From positions 1 to 24,326 of the IMG/VR virus record IMGVR_UViG_3300020042_004847: a stretch of DNA of 24,326 nucleotides; one strand, given 5' to 3'. A program made the position numbers and the translations under genes. Positions 4,306-11,142 of the stretch are shown here, one piece after another. The notes beneath the pieces are model-generated. The model was not told where the DNA came from. It did not search any database and worked only from the letters and a program-made list of their open reading frames with translations. Source of the stretch: a virus. Its lineage: Duplodnaviria; Caudoviricetes. Positions within the stretch are counted from its first letter, which is position 1; each line of letters begins with the position of its first letter.

Positions 4306-4334
4306 ATGTTACTGCTTATGCGCAGCTATGTAAA
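4306..4334 (-). promoter_or_regulatory. Sigma70-type promoter of the recombination operon with a palindromic operator in the spacer
   Basis: TTTACA(4334-4329)-17 nt-TAACAT(4311-4306). The spacer contains CTGC-N6-GCAG (4312-4325). Confidence 0.65.
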
Positions 4335-4779
4335 CATCATACGGTTCAAGATCACTTTCATTTACATGACATAAAAGCTGTTGTCGTTTACCTCCTTTTA
4401 GCCAAGACTCAGGTATCGATTCGCCAGCCTTTACGCGCTTAACTGCAGCCATGAGTGGGTCTATGCGCCAGCTATTGTTAGACGCGCTGTGCGTTGATAT
4501 TTGCCCACTCTGCGTCAATGTTCTGACTGCATCGACAAACTCCTTTGCTGTTGGAAGCGTTCGGCTTTTGGCGGATCGTGAAACCTCTTTGGTGATTGAG
4601 GCCAAGAGGTTTCCGATCCGCTCACTTGTAAGGGGCGATGGAAGGTTGCTGTTGATTGCATCAATCACATCCATTGCCGCAACTTTTGCATCGACATCAC
4701 GAGGCATATTGAATCGGATGGTTATGTCCGATTGAAACCAAGTCTTGATGCGAGCAATCCGTTCATCATAGTTCAACAT
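4309..4779 (-). CDS. Hypothetical protein following the initiator (possible helicase loader / replication accessory)
   Basis: ATG at 4779 with SD GGAG. It lies directly after the O-like gene and contains RTLPTAKEF, similar to FPxxAE motifs of loader-like proteins. Function is inferred from position only. Confidence 0.6.
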   Translation of the reverse strand: MLNYDERIARIKTWFQSDITIRFNMPRDVDAKVAAMDVIDAINSNLPSPLTSERIGNLLASITKEVSRSAKSRTLPTAKEFVDAVRTLTQSGQISTHSASNNSWRIDPLMAAVKRVKAGESIPESWLKGGKRQQLLCHVNESDLEPYDVYIAAHKQ

Positions 4780-5422
4780 TACTCCACCCTGATGTTGGCC
4801 TAGTTTCCTCTGTCGCAAGGTCATCTTCCCACCGCTCAGTATTTAACCATGTTGTGGGATGCGGGATGAATTTTTGTTCGATCTTCATCTCAGTGCAGTG
4901 TGCTGCATAAGCGATTGCTGCTTGAACAATTGCATTGCCATCAGCAAAGCTAAGAGATCTGGCAAACGCAATGCGGGCTGCACCCTTACCGATGCGGCGA
5001 GGGTATGCCTGCCAGAAAGCAAGGAACAGTGGGGTATCCATAGGTCGTGCCAGATTGGCACGATAAGATGTATTCTCCTTCTTCTTCTTAGTATCTAAGT
5101 ATATAACACCTTCGTGTGCCAAATTGGCACGGGTATCTTCAGTCATCTCTTCCTCCATACTGATGATGATGTAGAAATTGGACGTTCCGTGACGATGCCT
5201 GACCCGAATCAATCCTTCTTTCTCCAGCCATTGTATCGCCCTTACCACTGTACGCACAGCAATACCGCTACCATCAGAGAGTGTTTCTCTAGATGGAAAA
5301 CATTCACCGCTTGAGTTACTGTAACGTGCGATCTCTAGCAGGACGATCTTAGCTATTGGGTTTGGGATGTAAGTTAAGGCAATGTCAGCGAGAAGATCAT
5401 AGGGGATCAATCTCTGCTTCAA
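4766..5422 (-). CDS. Replication initiator, lambda-O-like with N-terminal winged HTH (HTH_36)
   Basis: N-domain CFPSRETLSDGSGIAVRTVVRAIQWLEKEGLI and C-domain FLAFWQAYPRRIGK...FIPHPTTWLNTERWED. TTG start with SD GGAGGAG. Confidence 0.85.
   Translation of the reverse strand: MKQRLIPYDLLADIALTYIPNPIAKIVLLEIARYSNSSGECFPSRETLSDGSGIAVRTVVRAIQWLEKEGLIRVRHRHGTSNFYIIISMEEEMTEDTRANLAHEGVIYLDTKKKKENTSYRANLARPMDTPLFLAFWQAYPRRIGKGAARIAFARSLSFADGNAIVQAAIAYAAHCTEMKIEQKFIPHPTTWLNTERWEDDLATEETRPTSGWSNVEL
5045..5131. repeat. Candidate replication origin: two palindromic iterons flanking an AT/pyrimidine-rich spacer
   Basis: TCGTGCCAGATTGGCACGA (5045-5063) and GTGCCAAATTGGCACG (5116-5131) lie in the inter-domain linker of the initiator, the position of ori in lambdoid O genes. 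Confidence 0.65.
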
Positions 5423-6424: not shown

Positions 6425-6629
6425 CAAGCCAACACATTAGCATGAATCCAGAAGGAATTCGTTTGTTGGTTTCCCACTTGTGGATCAATGACACTGTGCA
6501 TCCGATGATATCAGCTAGTACTTCTTGACTTAAACCGCGCTCTGATCGTGCGGTTATTAACCTTTGCACCAGATTTTCGTAGTGCTTCGGAATAAGCACG
6601 GGCTTGTTGAAGTGTGTGAAGTTTTTCAA
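6375..6629 (-). CDS. XRE-family HTH transcriptional regulator
   Basis: LITARSERGLSQEVLADIIGCTVSLIHKWETNKRIPS is a canonical HTH_3. TTG start. Confidence 0.85.
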   Translation of the reverse strand: MKNFTHFNKPVLIPKHYENLVQRLITARSERGLSQEVLADIIGCTVSLIHKWETNKRIPSGFMLMCWLDALDYEIEVKKRLDKV

Positions 6630-6792
6630 TTGCTTTCATCACCTTAGCTGATGTTTCGTGACGAAGTTCTGTCGTTTGATTTATAGTCCTATAGTATGTT
6701 GATGTTGGAATATCTGCTTCTTTGAAAGCAGTGAGAAGTGAGAGGCCGCATTCATCGGCCTTCTCTGTGAGCAAGGTAAGATATGATTTCAT
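6511..6792 (-). CDS. Cro-like HTH regulator, probably leaderless
   Basis: LLTAFKEADIPTSTYYRTINQTTELRHET is HTH-like. ATG at 6792 has no SD and lies 7 nt after a -10 box. Confidence 0.7.
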   Translation of the reverse strand: MKSYLTLLTEKADECGLSLLTAFKEADIPTSTYYRTINQTTELRHETSAKVMKAIEKLHTLQQARAYSEALRKSGAKVNNRTIRARFKSRSTS

Positions 6793-6794
6793 GC

Positions 6795-6828
6795 GCTGCA
6801 CAATTGCAGCAACCCAATCCTTAGTCAA
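6795..6828 (-). promoter_or_regulatory. Promoter with overlapping palindromic operator for the Cro/XRE/replication operon
   Basis: TTGACT(6828-6823)-17 nt-AATTGT(6805-6800). The palindrome GCTGCA-N4-TGCAGC (6795-6810) covers the -10. Confidence 0.6.
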
Positions 6829-7003
6829 GATCTTCTGGATCTTCTTCAACCAAACCTACGCCATTGCATAGGTCGCACCTATGCCATGCTGCATACTCTT
6901 CACCAACATCTCTGTTGAATGATGCGTATTTGTAGTATCCAATCTCGATTTCACCCTGACCATTACAGTCAGGGCAAACGTGTCTAGTAGGGTATTTCGT
7001 CAT
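6821..7003 (-). CDS. Small DnaJ-type zinc-finger protein
   Basis: Two CxxCxGxG repeats (CPDCNGQG, CDLCNGVG). Start uncertain. Confidence 0.75.
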   Translation of the reverse strand: MTKYPTRHVCPDCNGQGEIEIGYYKYASFNRDVGEEYAAWHRCDLCNGVGLVEEDPEDLD

Positions 7004-7199
7004 CGATTGCTTTGATTTCGAATCGGTCTGCATTTGCAGTCTCCCATGCTTTGGTTGCTCGAGCGATGAACTTCTCGCGATTGAATTTTGGGTTTGTCTC
7101 TTGCAGTTGATCTGCTATCTCATGCAGATCGCTCGGCCAGCCCACTAATGGGCCGACCTTTTCTGCAATGAAATCAAAGTGTTGCTTACTCATTCGCAT
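6984..7199 (-). CDS. Hypothetical early protein (71 aa) with SSB-like acidic tail
   Basis: SKQHFDFIA...NPKFNREKF pattern, ending DDEIPY. SD GAGGA. Confidence 0.75.
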   Translation of the reverse strand: MRMSKQHFDFIAEKVGPLVGWPSDLHEIADQLQETNPKFNREKFIARATKAWETANADRFEIKAIDDEIPY

Positions 7200-7398
7200 T
7201 AGATGGTTCCTCTGGCTTGCAGTAGTTTTGATGAGTTGTTTCTTTCACAACCAACTGCTGTGTGTCGTCAGTGAAAAAGTAAATAGACACTTTGTGTCCA
7301 TCTTTGTTTTTCCCAGTAAAGCTGTGGACCATAAAGCCATCGTACTTTGCGATGTTGGAACTAATCTCGCACACGCCGTGCATATTGATATCGCTCAT
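7186..7398 (-). CDS. Hypothetical early protein (70 aa)
   Basis: ATGA-coupled to the DUF932 stop, SD GGAGG. Confidence 0.7.
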   Translation of the reverse strand: MSDINMHGVCEISSNIAKYDGFMVHSFTGKNKDGHKVSIYFFTDDTQQLVVKETTHQNYCKPEEPSNANE

Positions 7399-8228
7399 GC
7401 GATTTCCTCCCATAGTTTGTGTTGCATTGCTTTTGAAATTGCATCTTCGCGATTGCGACGAGTAACTTCAGGGTTCTTCAGTTCTTTGGTATGGCTAGAC
7501 CAGTAGGTCATTGCGTTGTACAGCGCCCACTTGTTGCCGCCCAAGCTGTTGGCTTCATCGCTCCAAATCGAAAGCAACTTTTCCAATTGCTTTTCATTGG
7601 TCTTCTGATGCTGAAGCTGATTGGTAAACGACTTGGCAATCGTTGCCTTGAAGAAAGTCTCAGCCATGTCATCAGTCACAGATGATGCCATCCAATCACG
7701 CCAGATGTGCGGCTGATTCATGAAGGTTTCCAAACCAAAGATCATCTTTGCAGCGCTGCCTTCGATGTTGACAGACTGCGTGTGCTTGAACTTAGACGAT
7801 GCAGTTTTGTTTGCAGTCGTGCAACCATTCAAGCACCACAAGCGCAGGCCATCAGCCGATTGACTGAATGCCCAGCTACCATCATAACTATTAAAAAAGC
7901 TGATGCGGAACTTAACGTAGTCGCCAATCTTTGGCTCGACAGTGAGATCGTTGAACAAGATCTCGCCGCGCAATTTGCGACCATCTTCGATGACGCTGAA
8001 GTTGGTTGTGTAGTCACGGCTGATGTTCGATGCCTTCACTGCATCTATCAAGGACGATACCACATCATCATGCTTGATGATTTGATAGCGGCTGCCATGC
8101 ACGCCAAGCACAGCGTTGGTATCAGTGCGGATCACGCACTTCTGATCTGGGATTTCGTTGCCCAGCTTGTCAAAGATTGGTTGAGTTTCTACAGGAAACT
8201 CATAGCTGTTGCGCACTAGATCAAACAT
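7395..8228 (-). CDS. DUF932/DUF945 family phage/plasmid protein
   Basis: RTDTNAVLGVHGSRYQII, NSYDGS, RLWCLNG, KHT and NKWALYNAMTYW motifs. ATG at 8228 has SD GGAG. Confidence 0.85.
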   Translation of the reverse strand: MFDLVRNSYEFPVETQPIFDKLGNEIPDQKCVIRTDTNAVLGVHGSRYQIIKHDDVVSSLIDAVKASNISRDYTTNFSVIEDGRKLRGEILFNDLTVEPKIGDYVKFRISFFNSYDGSWAFSQSADGLRLWCLNGCTTANKTASSKFKHTQSVNIEGSAAKMIFGLETFMNQPHIWRDWMASSVTDDMAETFFKATIAKSFTNQLQHQKTNEKQLEKLLSIWSDEANSLGGNKWALYNAMTYWSSHTKELKNPEVTRRNREDAISKAMQHKLWEEIA

Positions 8229-8424
8229 TCTTCTTCTCCGTTGTGTTAAGGCCGCAATCTTTGCGCCATTTGTGGATGGTTGATTCACCAAGGTGCAACA
8301 AGCTTGCCGCATGGCGAGTGCCATATTTGATCGACAAAAGAATTGCCTCAGATCTTACTGACTCTGGCATCCCATAGTCAGGATGATACGGAAGTACTTT
8401 CTTCGCATTGAAGATTGGATTCAT
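8221..8424 (-). CDS. Small HTH protein (67 aa)
   Basis: GTRHAASLLHLGESTIHKWRK is HTH-like. ATG at 8424 has SD AAGGA/GGA. Confidence 0.7.
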   Translation of the reverse strand: MNPIFNAKKVLPYHPDYGMPESVRSEAILLSIKYGTRHAASLLHLGESTIHKWRKDCGLNTTEKKNV

Positions 8425-8455
8425 TTTGATCCATCCTTTCATTTCATTTTGTTTC

Positions 8456-8547
8456 ATTGACGTAATGTTTGGCTGCGGCGAGCGCGGCGTTACAGTAAGA
8501 AACCGCTCGCGCCCTTCCTTGAGGCCGCTGTTTGCTTGAGTCATATT
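8456..8547. promoter_or_regulatory. Fold-back element 3 with + strand promoter-like arm
   Basis: Inner stem GCGAGCG(C)GG/CCGCTCGC and closing TGAC/GTCA. The right arm reads TTGAGG(8519)-17 nt-CATATT(8542). Confidence 0.4.
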
Positions 8548-8557
8548 CTCGAAGCAT

Positions 8558-8585
8558 AAAAAAAGGGGAACCTTTCGGCCCCCCT
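8558..8585 (-). terminator. Intrinsic terminator after 8593..9207
   Basis: AGGGGGGCC-GAAA-GGTTCCCCT followed by a T run on the minus strand, 7 nt after the stop codon. Confidence 0.9.
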
Positions 8586-8592
8586 GATCTCG

Positions 8593-9207
8593 CTATGCTA
8601 CGTCCCGCTCGTTAGTCTCAACACCGAACGTGTTCATCTGGACATCAACGTTAGTCGTAATGCCCAGCCGTGCCAATCGAGTCATCACTGCATCAGCATT
8701 GGCGCTCGACTGCATCGGTGCTTTCTTCTGCACTGCGGTTTCCCAAGGCGCATAAGGTTTGAAATCCTCACCCGTTGCCGCCTCATATACTGCGCCCGCT
8801 GTCCAGACCATCGTTTGCAAGGCGCTAACCTCCGCCTCTAGACGCTCGATCCAATCTGCTGCACGATTAAGTGCCTCTAGATCGATCTCAGTATCCGATA
8901 CACGCAGGGCCAAAGATCTTGCGTAAGATGTTGCGCGATCAAGCTGATGTGCAAGGCCCCGAGGGCGACCATCCTTACCAGTCGATGTGTCATTAAGCTG
9001 ACGATACGCTGCGTTACCGATGCTCTGAAGCACCAATTTCTGCGACCAGCTCATTGCATTGCGCTCGTTATACTTCCCGCTGTCTTTGTCCAGCACCATG
9101 CTTGGATCATAGAACTCTGCTGCGATACGGCATAGCGCCTGAGTCAGAGTGATGTCATCCTTACCAGTGTAAGAGTTGTTCAGGTCGATATTGATCAAGT
9201 TATCCAT
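8593..9207 (-). CDS. Helical early protein (204 aa), possibly related to the N-terminal domain of DUF2493 proteins
   Basis: SD GGAG before ATG at 9207 and its own terminator. SDTEIDLEAL...AGAVYEAATGEDFKP resembles, from memory, DGSEV...LE...FE..TG..WRP of plasmid/ICE DUF2493 N-domains. The CDS is solid and the family tentative. Confidence 0.7.
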   Translation of the reverse strand: MDNLINIDLNNSYTGKDDITLTQALCRIAAEFYDPSMVLDKDSGKYNERNAMSWSQKLVLQSIGNAAYRQLNDTSTGKDGRPRGLAHQLDRATSYARSLALRVSDTEIDLEALNRAADWIERLEAEVSALQTMVWTAGAVYEAATGEDFKPYAPWETAVQKKAPMQSSANADAVMTRLARLGITTNVDVQMNTFGVETNERDVA

Positions 9208-9250
9208 TGTGTTTCTCCATTGTGATGTTTGCATAGTTTCTAGTTTATAT

Positions 9251-9341
9251 CTCAGTCAGCAGTCGATGTTCTGAATGACTGTCAAGGGCGCGTAGCGGCG
9301 AAGCGCACCCTTGACTGTCAGGCAGGTTATCGACAGACGAG
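9251..9341. promoter_or_regulatory. Fold-back element 1: Frpo/ssi-like ssDNA hairpin promoter candidate
   Basis: Stem segments GTCGAT/ATCGAC, CTG/CAG, TGAC/GTCA and GTCAAGGG/CCCTTGAC. The apex holds GCGTAGC and GCGAAGC. The right arm reads TTGACT(9311)-17 nt-CAGACG(9334). Confidence 0.6.
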
Positions 9342-9464
9342 TCATTCTTTGTGCAGCCATGATTCCAGTCTCATGTGTAGTGCTATGATGAAGCAAGTGA
9401 CGCCCGCACTGACGCAAGCAATTGATACAGCTACTAAAATTGTAACGATAATTTCGTATGTCAT
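9342..9464 (-). CDS. Small single-pass membrane protein (40 aa), first gene of the early arm; absent from the ORF track
   Basis: SD AGGAG, then MTYEIIVTILVAVSIACVSAGVTCFIIALHMRLESWLHKE*. Confidence 0.7.
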   Translation of the reverse strand: MTYEIIVTILVAVSIACVSAGVTCFIIALHMRLESWLHKE

Positions 9465-9506
9465 TCTATTTCTCCTGTTCTATTCGCGCAGACAAACTCC
9501 GTGCGA

Positions 9507-9703
9507 TGTCCTATGGCTACTTAAATTACTTCGCACCGAGCATCGCGAGGGAATGGTCAAGGACTGCGAAGCAGCCAGCTCCGCTGGGCGTTGGTTTTTT
9601 CAGAGGCAAACTGATATAGATCAGTAATAAGCTGACGCTCGATCCTCTGAAAAAAGCTACGATCCTTGACGATGCAAGTAATTTAGGGACTCCCAGAGGG
9701 ACA
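9507..9703. promoter_or_regulatory. Fold-back element 2: branched Frpo/ssi-like structure
   Basis: Nested pairings TGTCC/GGACA, TAAATTACTT/AAGTAATTTA, GTCAAGGA/TCCTTGAC and TTTTTTCAGAGG/CCTCTGAAAAAA. Side hairpins CTGC-GAA-GCAG, CCAGC-TCC-GCTGG and ACTGAT-ATAG-ATCAGT. Confidence 0.6.
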
Positions 9704-9711
9704 ATCCGCAC

Positions 9712-10135
9712 GGGGGTTTGTGTGTGTGAGTACCCCAGTAGTAGTGAGGACATAACCTACCCAGCGCGCCGCTCTTGGGCGGCGCACGCTGGGGGGTTAT
9801 ACCGCAACGGCCCGCAAGTCTTGGCAATTCTCTTTCAGGCAGGTAACGCAATGTTTCGAAGCTGAGACGCCGCTAAGCACTTGGGCCAGCGGCGTGGTTG
9901 TCACATGTGCGGACGGCGAGCCTGATTCGCTGAGTCAGCTTTCCCTTTAAGGAAAGTGACTGCGGATCAGGTGAAGCATCGCGATGTTGCAAGGTGTATC
10001 CCTCTTGGACAAGGGATGCTCACCCGTAAGGGCGGAGACCCGCACTATAGGGTCTCCGTTCATGAGCAGCGCGGTCCCGCCCCCAACAGACGCTGAGCAA
10101 TAAAGACAGGTATAACCAAGGGCGGGATGGCCCCA
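9712..10135. repeat. Non-coding cluster of GC-rich inverted repeats between the divergent arms
   Basis: Hairpins at 9760-9793, 9867-9895, 9976-9987, 9998-10017, 10023-10032 and 10032-10059. No ORF here has an SD or a recognisable product. Confidence 0.6.
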
Positions 10136-10160
10136 ATCACTTTGTCTGTAACAATCGATC

Positions 10161-10197
10161 TTGTGAGTTGACATACAAATCAGGTGATACTTAATGG
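10161..10197 (+). promoter_or_regulatory. Putative late promoter upstream of terS
   Basis: TTGTGAGTTG motif overlapping a perfect TTGACA (10168), with TAATGG at 18-nt spacing. Confidence 0.55.
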
Positions 10198-10222
10198 GGG
10201 GGATACAGGGGGGGCTTCATAG

Positions 10223-10603
10223 ATGAGTATTCTGCCAGAGAAGCGTAAGTTAACCACAAGACAGATGGCTCTGGTTGATGTCATGGTAGCAGAAGGACTG
10301 AATACGTCAGCCGCTGCCAAAGAAGCAGGATACGCTGAAGGGAAATCTGGATACGTCACAGCAAGCAAGACACTGAAGCTACCTCATGTGCAGCAGTATA
10401 TGATGCAACGGATAGCAGAGTCGTTAGGAACCAATGCTGCGTTCGCCGCGTCCAAGGTTATGAGGCTCGCAAGCGGGGCCAAGAGTGAGTACGTTCAGCT
10501 CGAAGCGGCTAAGGATATCTTGGATCGTGCTGGGTTCAAGCCTATCGACAGAGCGCAGGTACAAGTAGCTGGTGACATACGAGTTCACATAGACCTCGGT
10601 TAA
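10223..10603 (+). CDS. terS: Terminase small subunit
   Basis: LTTRQMALVD...SAAAKEAGYA...ASKTLKLPHVQQY HTH and SEYVQLEAAKDILDRAG. First gene of the morphogenesis arm. Confidence 0.85.
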   Translation: MSILPEKRKLTTRQMALVDVMVAEGLNTSAAAKEAGYAEGKSGYVTASKTLKLPHVQQYMMQRIAESLGTNAAFAASKVMRLASGAKSEYVQLEAAKDILDRAGFKPIDRAQVQVAGDIRVHIDLG

Positions 10604-10642
10604 TTATTCTAGCCGTTCACTCAGGCTGGCTTGATCAGGCAT

Positions 10643-10703
10643 GGGGGGTGGGGGCAAAACTGGACATGATAGTTGCTGTAATAGTCTACCACTCGTATTT
10701 TTC
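10643..10703 (+). other. Candidate packaging (pac/cos-like) signal
   Basis: GGGGGGTGGGGGCAAAA...CCACTCGTATTTTTC in the non-coding gap right after terS. Confidence 0.4.
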
Positions 10704-10736
10704 TTCAAAAAGGTTCGCTATTAAAAGGAATGTGAT

Positions 10737-10979
10737 ATGAAGGTTGCGGTAATGATGGCTGGTCGGTTTGGCGGTAAGGTTCCAGAGGTTCAGCCTTTTG
10801 GTGACAGTTCTAAGGCTAAGGTGGGGATGAGACATGGCGAAGAGTCCAGCGTGGCAGCGGAAGGCGGGGAAGAACCCAAGCGGCGGGTTAAACGCCGCAG
10901 GAAGGGCGAGTTACAATCAGGAGACGGGGGGCAACTTGCAGGCTCCAGTGAAGTCGGGGGACAATCCGAGACGGGCTAG
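10737..10979 (+). CDS. Possible small protein whose 3' half overlaps the next gene
   Basis: SD AAGGA before ATG at 10737. It fills an otherwise empty 100 nt, but 146 nt overlap 10834..11142. Confidence 0.35.
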   Translation: MKVAVMMAGRFGGKVPEVQPFGDSSKAKVGMRHGEESSVAAEGGEEPKRRVKRRRKGELQSGDGGQLAGSSEVGGQSETG

Positions 10980-11142
10980 TTTCTTGGCTCGAATGGGGAA
11001 CATGGCTGGGCCTGAGCGTGATGAGAAGGGGAAGCCCACTCGTCTTCTTCTCAGCCTGAAGGTATGGGGTGCAAGTAGTAAAGAGGATGCTAGGGCCAAG
11101 GCTCGCGCGATTAGTCGTAGATTGAAAGCGAAGAAGGATTGA
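10834..11142 (+). CDS. Basic phage protein, DUF6321-like
   Basis: SPAWQRKAGKNPSGGLNAAGRASY...RRASFLARM...SLKVWG. Confidence 0.8.
   Translation: MAKSPAWQRKAGKNPSGGLNAAGRASYNQETGGNLQAPVKSGDNPRRASFLARMGNMAGPERDEKGKPTRLLLSLKVWGASSKEDARAKARAISRRLKAKKD

Follow-up and report, generated by a model that had tools for sequence, protein, structure and literature searches.

Folded single-stranded DNA (ssDNA) presents promoter boxes to host polymerase in the complementary-strand origins of filamentous phages and in the single-strand origins of rolling-circle plasmids, and Masai and Arai (1997) are said in later papers to have carried out earlier work on promoters of the Frpo/ssi kind. The hairpin promoters of coliphage N4 are short, have small purine loops, and are read by N4's own virion polymerase. 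Conjugative plasmids, whose DNA enters as a single strand, have promoters that host polymerase reads in single-stranded form, namely Frpo1/Frpo2 (ssp1) and ssp2 of F and ssi of ColIb-P9 (PMC9849209, PMC11541004, PMC13478746, bioRxiv 10.64898/2026.01.09.698686). N4, by comparison, is a tailed double-stranded DNA (dsDNA) phage; its early hairpin promoters are the subject of another paper (PMC13434306). Here we describe two fold-backs at the head of the early arm in IMG/VR record IMGVR_UViG_3300020042_004847 (24,326 nucleotides [nt], the whole of which is called the window below), a 24-kb piece of a podovirus genome. With a probability of about 0.62, we predict that 9262-9339 and 9485-9730 are Frpo-type promoters read by host polymerase on the folded + strand. 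The author of the original prediction for this DNA knew of no description of the kind in tailed dsDNA phages, and our literature search agrees: the Frpo and ssDNA-promoter papers that it listed concerned plasmids and N4 only, and none of them reported such a promoter in tailed phages, with most subscription papers and all supplements outside the search. The tables of Frpo candidates in PMC11541004 may include related sequences.

Two fold-backs upstream of gene 1

The closest isolate is Pelagibacter phage EXVC031P Hodr (64.6% identity in TerL, 47.5% in TerS), the cultured member of the family, grown on Pelagibacter HTCC1062 (SAR11). An assignment to the HTVC010P type was dropped, HTVC010P being matched by neither TerS nor TerL. 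From a scan with terS, the gene for the terminase small subunit, we estimate this widespread family of aquatic tailed phages at ~1500 stored stretches in IMG/VR. The best 80 of these plus the window yielded 60 with a usable region and 42 non-redundant loci, from which the family counts below are drawn. The features that carry the argument are as follows.

9262..9339, + strand: element 2, the family-wide fold-back, with arms 9262-9288/9308-9334, a left GTCAA at 9281-9285, the -35 TTGACT at 9311-9316, and a -10 candidate, CAGACG, at 9334-9339
9289..9305, + strand: apex of element 2, two GC-GNA-GC mini-hairpins, GCGTAGC (9290-9296) and GCGAAGC (9298-9304)
9485..9730, + strand: element 1, a branched fold-back with an outer helix (9485-9506/9705-9730), a spacer helix (~9520-9535/9673-9689), a -35 helix (9556-9563/9663-9670), and TTGACG at 9666-9671
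9536..9553, + strand: left-arm loop-out of 18 nt in element 1, separating its -35 helix from its spacer helix
8593..9207, - strand: gene 1 (204 amino acids [aa]), mostly helical, with the Shine-Dalgarno (SD) complement TCTCC at 9214-9218; a homologue stands behind the fold-back across the family and in Hodr
9342..9464, - strand: open reading frame (ORF) of 40 aa with its SD complement at 9471-9476, directly behind element 1; relatives have other small genes here

Element 2 corresponds to a fold-back originally drawn at 9251-9341 and is real, with TTGACT paired. CAGACG begins at the end of the stem, such that C-12 is the last paired base and A-11 the first unpaired one. Folded as DNA, the element has z scores of -3.2 (+ strand) and -3.5 (- strand). 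Across 11 close relatives, 88.7% of 345 alignment cells are paired and 28 cells are changed on both sides, and 0/500 shuffles reached either value; controls slid along the alignment were 27-39% paired. The 9 doubly changed pairs were reached by 30/500 shuffles, and relatedness inflates such tests. At the apex, the closing pairs of the mini-hairpins are conserved and the middle base is variable.

Element 1 is likewise real, yet larger than the 9507-9703 first claimed for it, as its outer helix extends it on both sides. In its -35 helix, GTCAAGGA (9556-9563) is paired to TCCTTGAC (9663-9670). The + strand folds as DNA at -55.3 kcal/mol (z -7.7, with 0/200 shuffles as good) and the - strand at -51.0 kcal/mol (z -6.5). 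Its helices, the -35 helix included, are kept through differing sequences in 9 relatives, for example with GTCAA/TTGAC replaced by GTTAA/TTAAC; a 10th row, L086, was on the wrong strand and was left out. The paired columns hold 39 G.T against 4 A.C, a ratio biased to the + strand since the columns were derived from + strand folds. Covariation in homologues, which the original prediction had proposed as a check, is present in both elements. Some details of that prediction had to be moved. The 18-nt left-arm loop-out exists, but in element 1 and not in 9251-9341, and the leftward reading TTGACA-17-CTGCTG exists, but belongs to 9251-9341 and not to element 1. Re-pairing past the -10 position, claimed for both, is clear in element 1 but amounts to just a few base pairs in element 2.

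Similar folds were found throughout the family. Our detection rule called for a TT[GT][AC] hexamer with a pairing probability >0.6 whose partner lies 55-135 nt from a leftward start. With 330-nt search windows it returned 49 elements from 42/42 loci. With 300-nt search windows it was satisfied in 41/42 loci, compared with 28/168 shuffles and 14/42 regions upstream of terS; adding the dinucleotide YA (Y being C or T) at a spacer of 17 or 18 left 26/42 loci, 5/168 shuffles, and 1/42 terS-upstream regions. A fold-back with a paired -35-like hexamer on the right arm, as first noticed in the window, precedes the first leftward gene in 41/42 non-redundant relatives, and it recurs in Hodr, where a 185-nt fold (z -9.6) at the same place covers the SD and precedes a homologue of gene 1 (E 3.7e-8). 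Arm sequence is not conserved across the family, whereas pairing is. Of the 49 elements, 23 have a left-arm excess of at least 10 nt and 41 re-pair beyond the -10, and several relatives that have extra upstream genes possess a second fold.

Promoter-like boxes, strand, and polymer

The -10 signal is one-sided. YA stands at spacer 17 or 18 on the right (3') arm of 29/49 elements but in the leftward duplex reading of just 1/49. When loci are clustered by gene 1, the right arm leads by 15 to 0 of 24 clusters at 50% identity and by 6 to 0 of 12 at 35%. Mean predicted pairing in the 29 YA elements falls from 0.77 at -12 to 0.40 at -11, and fork opening at -11 is a substrate for sigma70 binding. The T at -7 is present in 3 of these 29. 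Because alphaproteobacterial -10 boxes usually have no T-7 (PMC8407463), the original argument that the leftward reading lacks a usable -10 is weak for any one sequence; as a family statistic it is strong.

Alternatively, the right arm might be a plain promoter that reads rightward from duplex DNA, with the inverted repeat serving as a cruciform, operator, origin, or packaging signal between the gene arms. TTG-N20/21-YA on the right arm is indeed a valid linear promoter in the same 29/49 elements, and the region adjoins terS, near which contig ends cluster. Against this, arm sequence varies while pairing is kept, terS has its own conserved TTGACA, and the imperfect arms, the left inserts of at least 10 nt (23/49), and the G.T pairs on one strand would suit a single strand and not a cruciform. 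We regard this explanation as very unlikely.

As to which strand folds, folding both strands with DNA parameters, as had been suggested, shows that the family leans to the + strand, which is the more stable in 41/49 elements; RNA parameters give 36/49. On the + strand, G.T outnumbers A.C mismatches 14:2 when 4-bp flanks are required, and 41:21 over whole intergenic regions (control, 15:18). In 10 close intergenic regions the sequence GCGNAGC occurs 43 times on the + strand and 5 times on the -, with all four middle bases in use, compared with 1 and 2 in coding controls. GNA triloops are specially stable in DNA; none of the papers listed by our literature search used that term. The 2-bp GNA mini-hairpins form under DNA parameters and not under RNA parameters. 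Loops of RNA type are not enriched, as there was no cUNCGg and the GNRA counts of 14 and 12 compare with 11 and 10 in controls. The first loop census left out loops with pairing end bases, and CTTG loops could therefore not be counted in it.

These strand data bear on two explanations in which the folded molecule is RNA. In one, it is a + strand RNA, either an antisense transcript through gene 1 (e.g., from 8469-8496) or a structured noncoding RNA. The candidate antisense promoter at 8469-8496 is kept in close relatives, the preference for the + strand persists with RNA parameters, and element 1 as + RNA has a z score of -6.4. An RNA begun at the right-arm promoter would, however, exclude the left arm, and it is with the left arm that the -35 and the spacer covary. 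The loop types just described also argue for DNA, and Rfam held no family at gathering score in 6500-11000; the 5 matches fell well short of it, the best having an E of 0.096. In the relatives L122 and L178, moreover, the fold ends ~50 nt before a TTGAC, which in L122 precedes terS, and this leaves little room for a large RNA. A + strand RNA is thus improbable.

In the other, the folds are leaders of the leftward mRNA, either RNase III sites or hairpins that occlude ribosome sites, like the mRNA-leader hairpins that precede the early genes of T7. The folds do lie just upstream of ribosome sites, re-pairing comes within 15 nt of the start codon in 23/49 elements, the SD is covered in Hodr, and element 1 as - RNA has a z score of -5.0. 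Nevertheless, the G.T pairs of the + strand would be A.C mismatches in such an mRNA (hence the weight of the 14:2 ratio), the + strand is the more stable even with RNA parameters, and an mRNA fold would have no use for a -10 signal on the other strand. In the regions analyzed we found no canonical leftward promoter farther upstream. We consider leaders of this kind highly improbable.

The apex motif in other replicons

The core of element 2 matched 10 viral stretches, and a looser pattern matched 119. These gave 75 distinct loci with flanks, in each of which the two longest ORFs were scanned for markers. Markers of microviruses or filamentous (inovirus-like) phages were found in 23 of the 75, with the marker gene on the GNA strand, which we take to be the virion strand, in 20/23. 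The remaining loci were tailed phages, two further family members (L122, L178), and chance coding matches. In the generic motif set the logo had no -10 peak, and the right side had the better -10 in 54 cases versus 34. A separate scan with the 16-mer ATCCGCACGGGGGTTT was set aside, its 13 matches being 5 known relatives and 8 unrelated coding sequences.

Among plasmids, the element-2 core matches 61 records. The Shewanella baltica conjugative plasmid pS18501 (NC_009661) has three unannotated long hairpins (L258:1994-2100, 5087-5193, and 8961-9100) with the same apex, each directly upstream of a leftward gene (zincin, hypothetical, and parB-like) and all between umuC and traI. They are candidate ssDNA promoters.

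Some motif-bearing viruses deserve separate mention. Microviruses L105 and L106 have a 63-aa antisense ORF with a ribosome site directly 5' of the motif, and TATAGT or TAAACT just 15 nt after the -35; the ORF may be a gene expressed from the virion strand as it enters. GTCAAGG-GCGNAGC-CCTTGAC is present in 2-4 copies per contig in tailed phages that have an SU10-type capsid or DNA polymerase A (L118, L131, L134, L161, L174, L176, and further loci on the same contigs), with a perfect TATAAT following at 18-20 nt in three of them. On the unrelated viral contig L109, small leftward genes are directly preceded by such a fold in two places. The shared apex could be used to look for promoters of this sort in microviruses, filamentous phages, and plasmids.

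It is also possible that the folds are mainly sites where RNA polymerase primes synthesis on a strand displaced in rolling-circle replication, that is, single-strand origins, and that gene 1 is expressed otherwise. The evidence from strand, covariation, and GNA motifs fits this as well, and filamentous phages and small plasmids have the motif without an adjacent antisense gene. No primase was found in the window or in a complete relative, whose scanned ORFs (26 of 42 flank ORFs, overlapping shadow frames omitted) also lacked any relaxase, rolling-circle Rep, helicase, or polymerase match; its longest ORFs, of 1079 and 1230 aa, have no Pfam match. Frpo transcripts, too, prime synthesis (10.64898/2026.01.09.698686). 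What speaks for a tie to gene 1 instead is that the left-arm partner of the -35 stays 55-135 nt from the gene 1 start in 41/42 loci, that a second fold accompanies extra upstream genes in several relatives, and that the sole conserved upstream leftward TTGAC has YA at 17/18 in 1/30. On balance, priming as the main role, with gene 1 expressed otherwise, is unlikely.

The data show the two folds, their covariation, and their position before gene 1, together with a + strand preference and a one-sided -10 signal across the family. A number of observations nonetheless weigh against reading them as promoters. Element 2 on its own has no strand preference as DNA (-22.4 versus -22.5), and the Hodr fold is slightly stronger on the other strand (z -10.6). 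In the window, element 1 has ACTCCC at spacer 17 and no YA at spacer 17 or 18, and in relatives its YA lies at 18-25 nt. YA at 17/18 is found in 3/8 of the window's own clade and in 6/12 clusters at 35% identity, and in duplex DNA the right arm of most elements would look like a normal promoter directed rightward. With 3-bp flanks the G.T:A.C ratio drops to 30:16, where composition alone expects 57% G.T. At 0.5-2 kb upstream of terS, GNA mini-hairpins favor the - strand (80 loci). In 3/23 ssDNA-virus loci the other strand carries the marker gene, and among 98 generic motif elements genes are no more frequent on the predicted side (left only in 16, right only in 17). No relaxase or rolling-circle Rep was found among the 26 scanned ORFs of the complete relative. 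Finally, the relatives behind all family counts are not independent samples.

Surroundings, proposed mechanism, and known systems

The other features of the region are listed below.

8456..8547, strand not assigned: third fold of the original prediction, weak, with an unpaired -35; a different class
8469..8496, + strand: candidate for an ordinary promoter reading rightward, TTGGCT-16-TACAGT (close relatives have TACAAT or TATAAT), directed antisense into gene 1
8564..8585, - strand: intrinsic-terminator-like hairpin with a T run, just after gene 1; hairpin and A run kept in relatives
7395..8228, - strand: DUF932 gene, present in 19/24 family loci having at least 3 kb upstream of terS
10168..10216, + strand: family-conserved TTGACA and G-rich tract ahead of terS
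10223..10603, + strand: terS, first gene of the rightward structural arm

The original prediction had envisaged an array of three promoter folds, but there is just a pair. At 8456-8547, z scores of -1.5 and -2.0 (15 and 10 of 200 shuffles as good) are within chance, the TT of TTGAGG has a pairing probability of 0.01, and no CCTCAA partner is present. The fold-back detector returned no element upstream of the leftward start at 8424, and relatives do not keep the fold, mostly having a better one on the - strand. The Frpo/ssi-like reading agrees with the sequence checks for the two real elements, through covariation, + strand preference, and, across the family, a -10 signal on the 3' arm alone with pairing that falls at -11; it fails for the third.

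Gene 1 is confidently predicted to encode a helical protein (predicted local distance difference test score of 86) and has 438 profile matches. It had no Pfam or PHROG family and no PDB fold at E 0.001; BFVD matches were uncharacterized phage proteins only, and Atlas matches scored at most 0.85. A match to Mu Gam, in 1/50 members at E 0.053, was taken as chance.

Farther right, the interval 9755-10065 between element 1 and terS contains more hairpins, and in relatives many GCGNAGC motifs. In 30/42 loci, an invariant GTCAA and TTGAC stand 57-62 nt apart, 70-180 nt upstream of terS, unpaired with each other and followed by the G tract. They often enclose the palindrome GTGACG-N3-CGTCAC, of which the window holds only the right half (10168). 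This looks like a protein-binding pair; as a leftward promoter (GTCAA-60-TTGAC) it was rejected, with YA at 17/18 in 1/30. Contig ends cluster at the G tract before terS (8/47) and ~70-90 nt after terS (4/39), at sites corresponding to 10196-10216 and 10644-10665 of the window (L011, L020, L026, L028, L032, L038, L042, L044, L046, and L047). The clusters may mark a pac site or terminus, or assembly breaks at the G tract.

More widely, the leftward arm encodes DUF932, helix-turn-helix regulators, an O-like initiator, a YqaJ exonuclease, and a gene like those for ssDNA-binding proteins, and the rightward arm runs from terS through terL, portal, capsid, and tail genes. Directly after the initiator gene, inside ORF 4309-4824, a hairpin at ~4551-4700 is as strong as element 1 by GC-corrected score and is possibly an origin-related structure. 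Hodr gene 026 (L229:4074-4958), in the early arm and annotated as hypothetical, is an ArdC (ArdcN and MPTase); ArdC is described as an ssDNA-binding protein (PMC5512222). None of the papers listed by the literature search mentions Hodr. The host is probably an alphaproteobacterium, judging from kinship with Hodr and promoter style. Sequencing runs containing the stretch are labeled viral and freshwater metagenomes, and none among the runs on record is an RNA run; four of the runs consisted of contigs only and carried no information on terminus or strand.

If the two elements are Frpo-type promoters, the + strand would fold when single-stranded, probably as DNA rather than RNA; its 3' arm would supply the -35 and -10 to host sigma70 polymerase and its 5' arm would be the template. 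The holoenzyme would bind at a fork junction paired to -12 and open from -11, and, with T-7 missing, would probably be helped by CarD. Leftward transcription of the first early genes would start at ~9249-9252, pass through gene 1, and end at the terminator at 8564-8585, so that the fold-driven transcript would cover no more than gene 1 and a small ORF. The additional small gene upstream would be served by element 1, though the -10 of that element is off canonical spacing in the window. RNA from the fold might also be used as a primer. With the fold over the ribosome site, as in Hodr and the 23/49 elements close to the start codon, RNA from duplex read-through would be poorly translated. We hold least firmly the step that makes the strand single. 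If the genome ended near terS, the + strand would have its 3' terminus at that end, and resection from 5' to 3' during entry would lay bare exactly the strand that folds; alternatively, strand displacement in rolling-circle replication would supply it.

It is possible, although we consider it doubtful, that Hodr-like podoviruses have a plasmid-style leading region, in which the first-entering end is single-stranded on one strand and the first gene is on only then and off once the duplex is restored. If true, entry of a tailed dsDNA phage would include a programmed single-stranded step, and the family concerned has a cultured SAR11 member. Conservation at the early-arm head of an abundant tailed-phage family would imply an unrecognized single-stranded phase, the promoters would act as a timer that makes the first phage gene depend on the DNA's state, and gene 1 would be a candidate entry or anti-defense factor.

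Compared with the hairpins of N4, the folds here are longer (75-250 nt) and have sigma70-type boxes, and no phage polymerase family was matched in the genomes scanned. Unlike RNase III leaders of the T7 type, they do not appear to be selected on the mRNA strand, given the G.T bias on the + strand. They resemble ssDNA-phage and rolling-circle origins in that the element-2 motif occurs in the micro- and inovirus-like loci noted above. Those genomes, however, are single-stranded by life cycle, whereas here there are lambda-like replication genes (the O-like initiator and YqaJ), terminase, and portal, and no Rep match.

The plasmid matches listed (15/45 and 40/61 records) were short core matches to other plasmids, with none to F Frpo or IncI1 ColIb-P9 ssi among them. 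Unlike Frpo/ssi, the putative phage promoters lie beside terminase, portal, and capsid genes and have a -10 without T-7; no relaxase was found in the complete relative (26 ORFs) or in Hodr (31 ORFs, which likewise had no Rep match). They also lie outside a conjugative leading region with oriT and relaxase, which is where the plasmid family is located. The hairpins of pS18501, together with short matches in Vibrio, Photobacterium, and 1.3-kb enterobacterial plasmids, share with the phage elements the double-GNA apex and the CAAGGG/CCCTTG helix, at 83% similarity over 47 nt and 91% over 44 nt. These plasmid copies, which are unannotated, have only the core in common with the phage elements; the arrangement in pS18501 resembles the leading regions described in PMC11541004. 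As in Frpo/ssi regions, an anti-restriction gene lies nearby in Hodr (ArdC). Like Frpo and ssi themselves, the phage elements are long imperfect stem-loops of the template strand that stand directly before the genes they would serve, with more than one per region; they present a -35-like box and, in element 2 and much of the family, a candidate -10.

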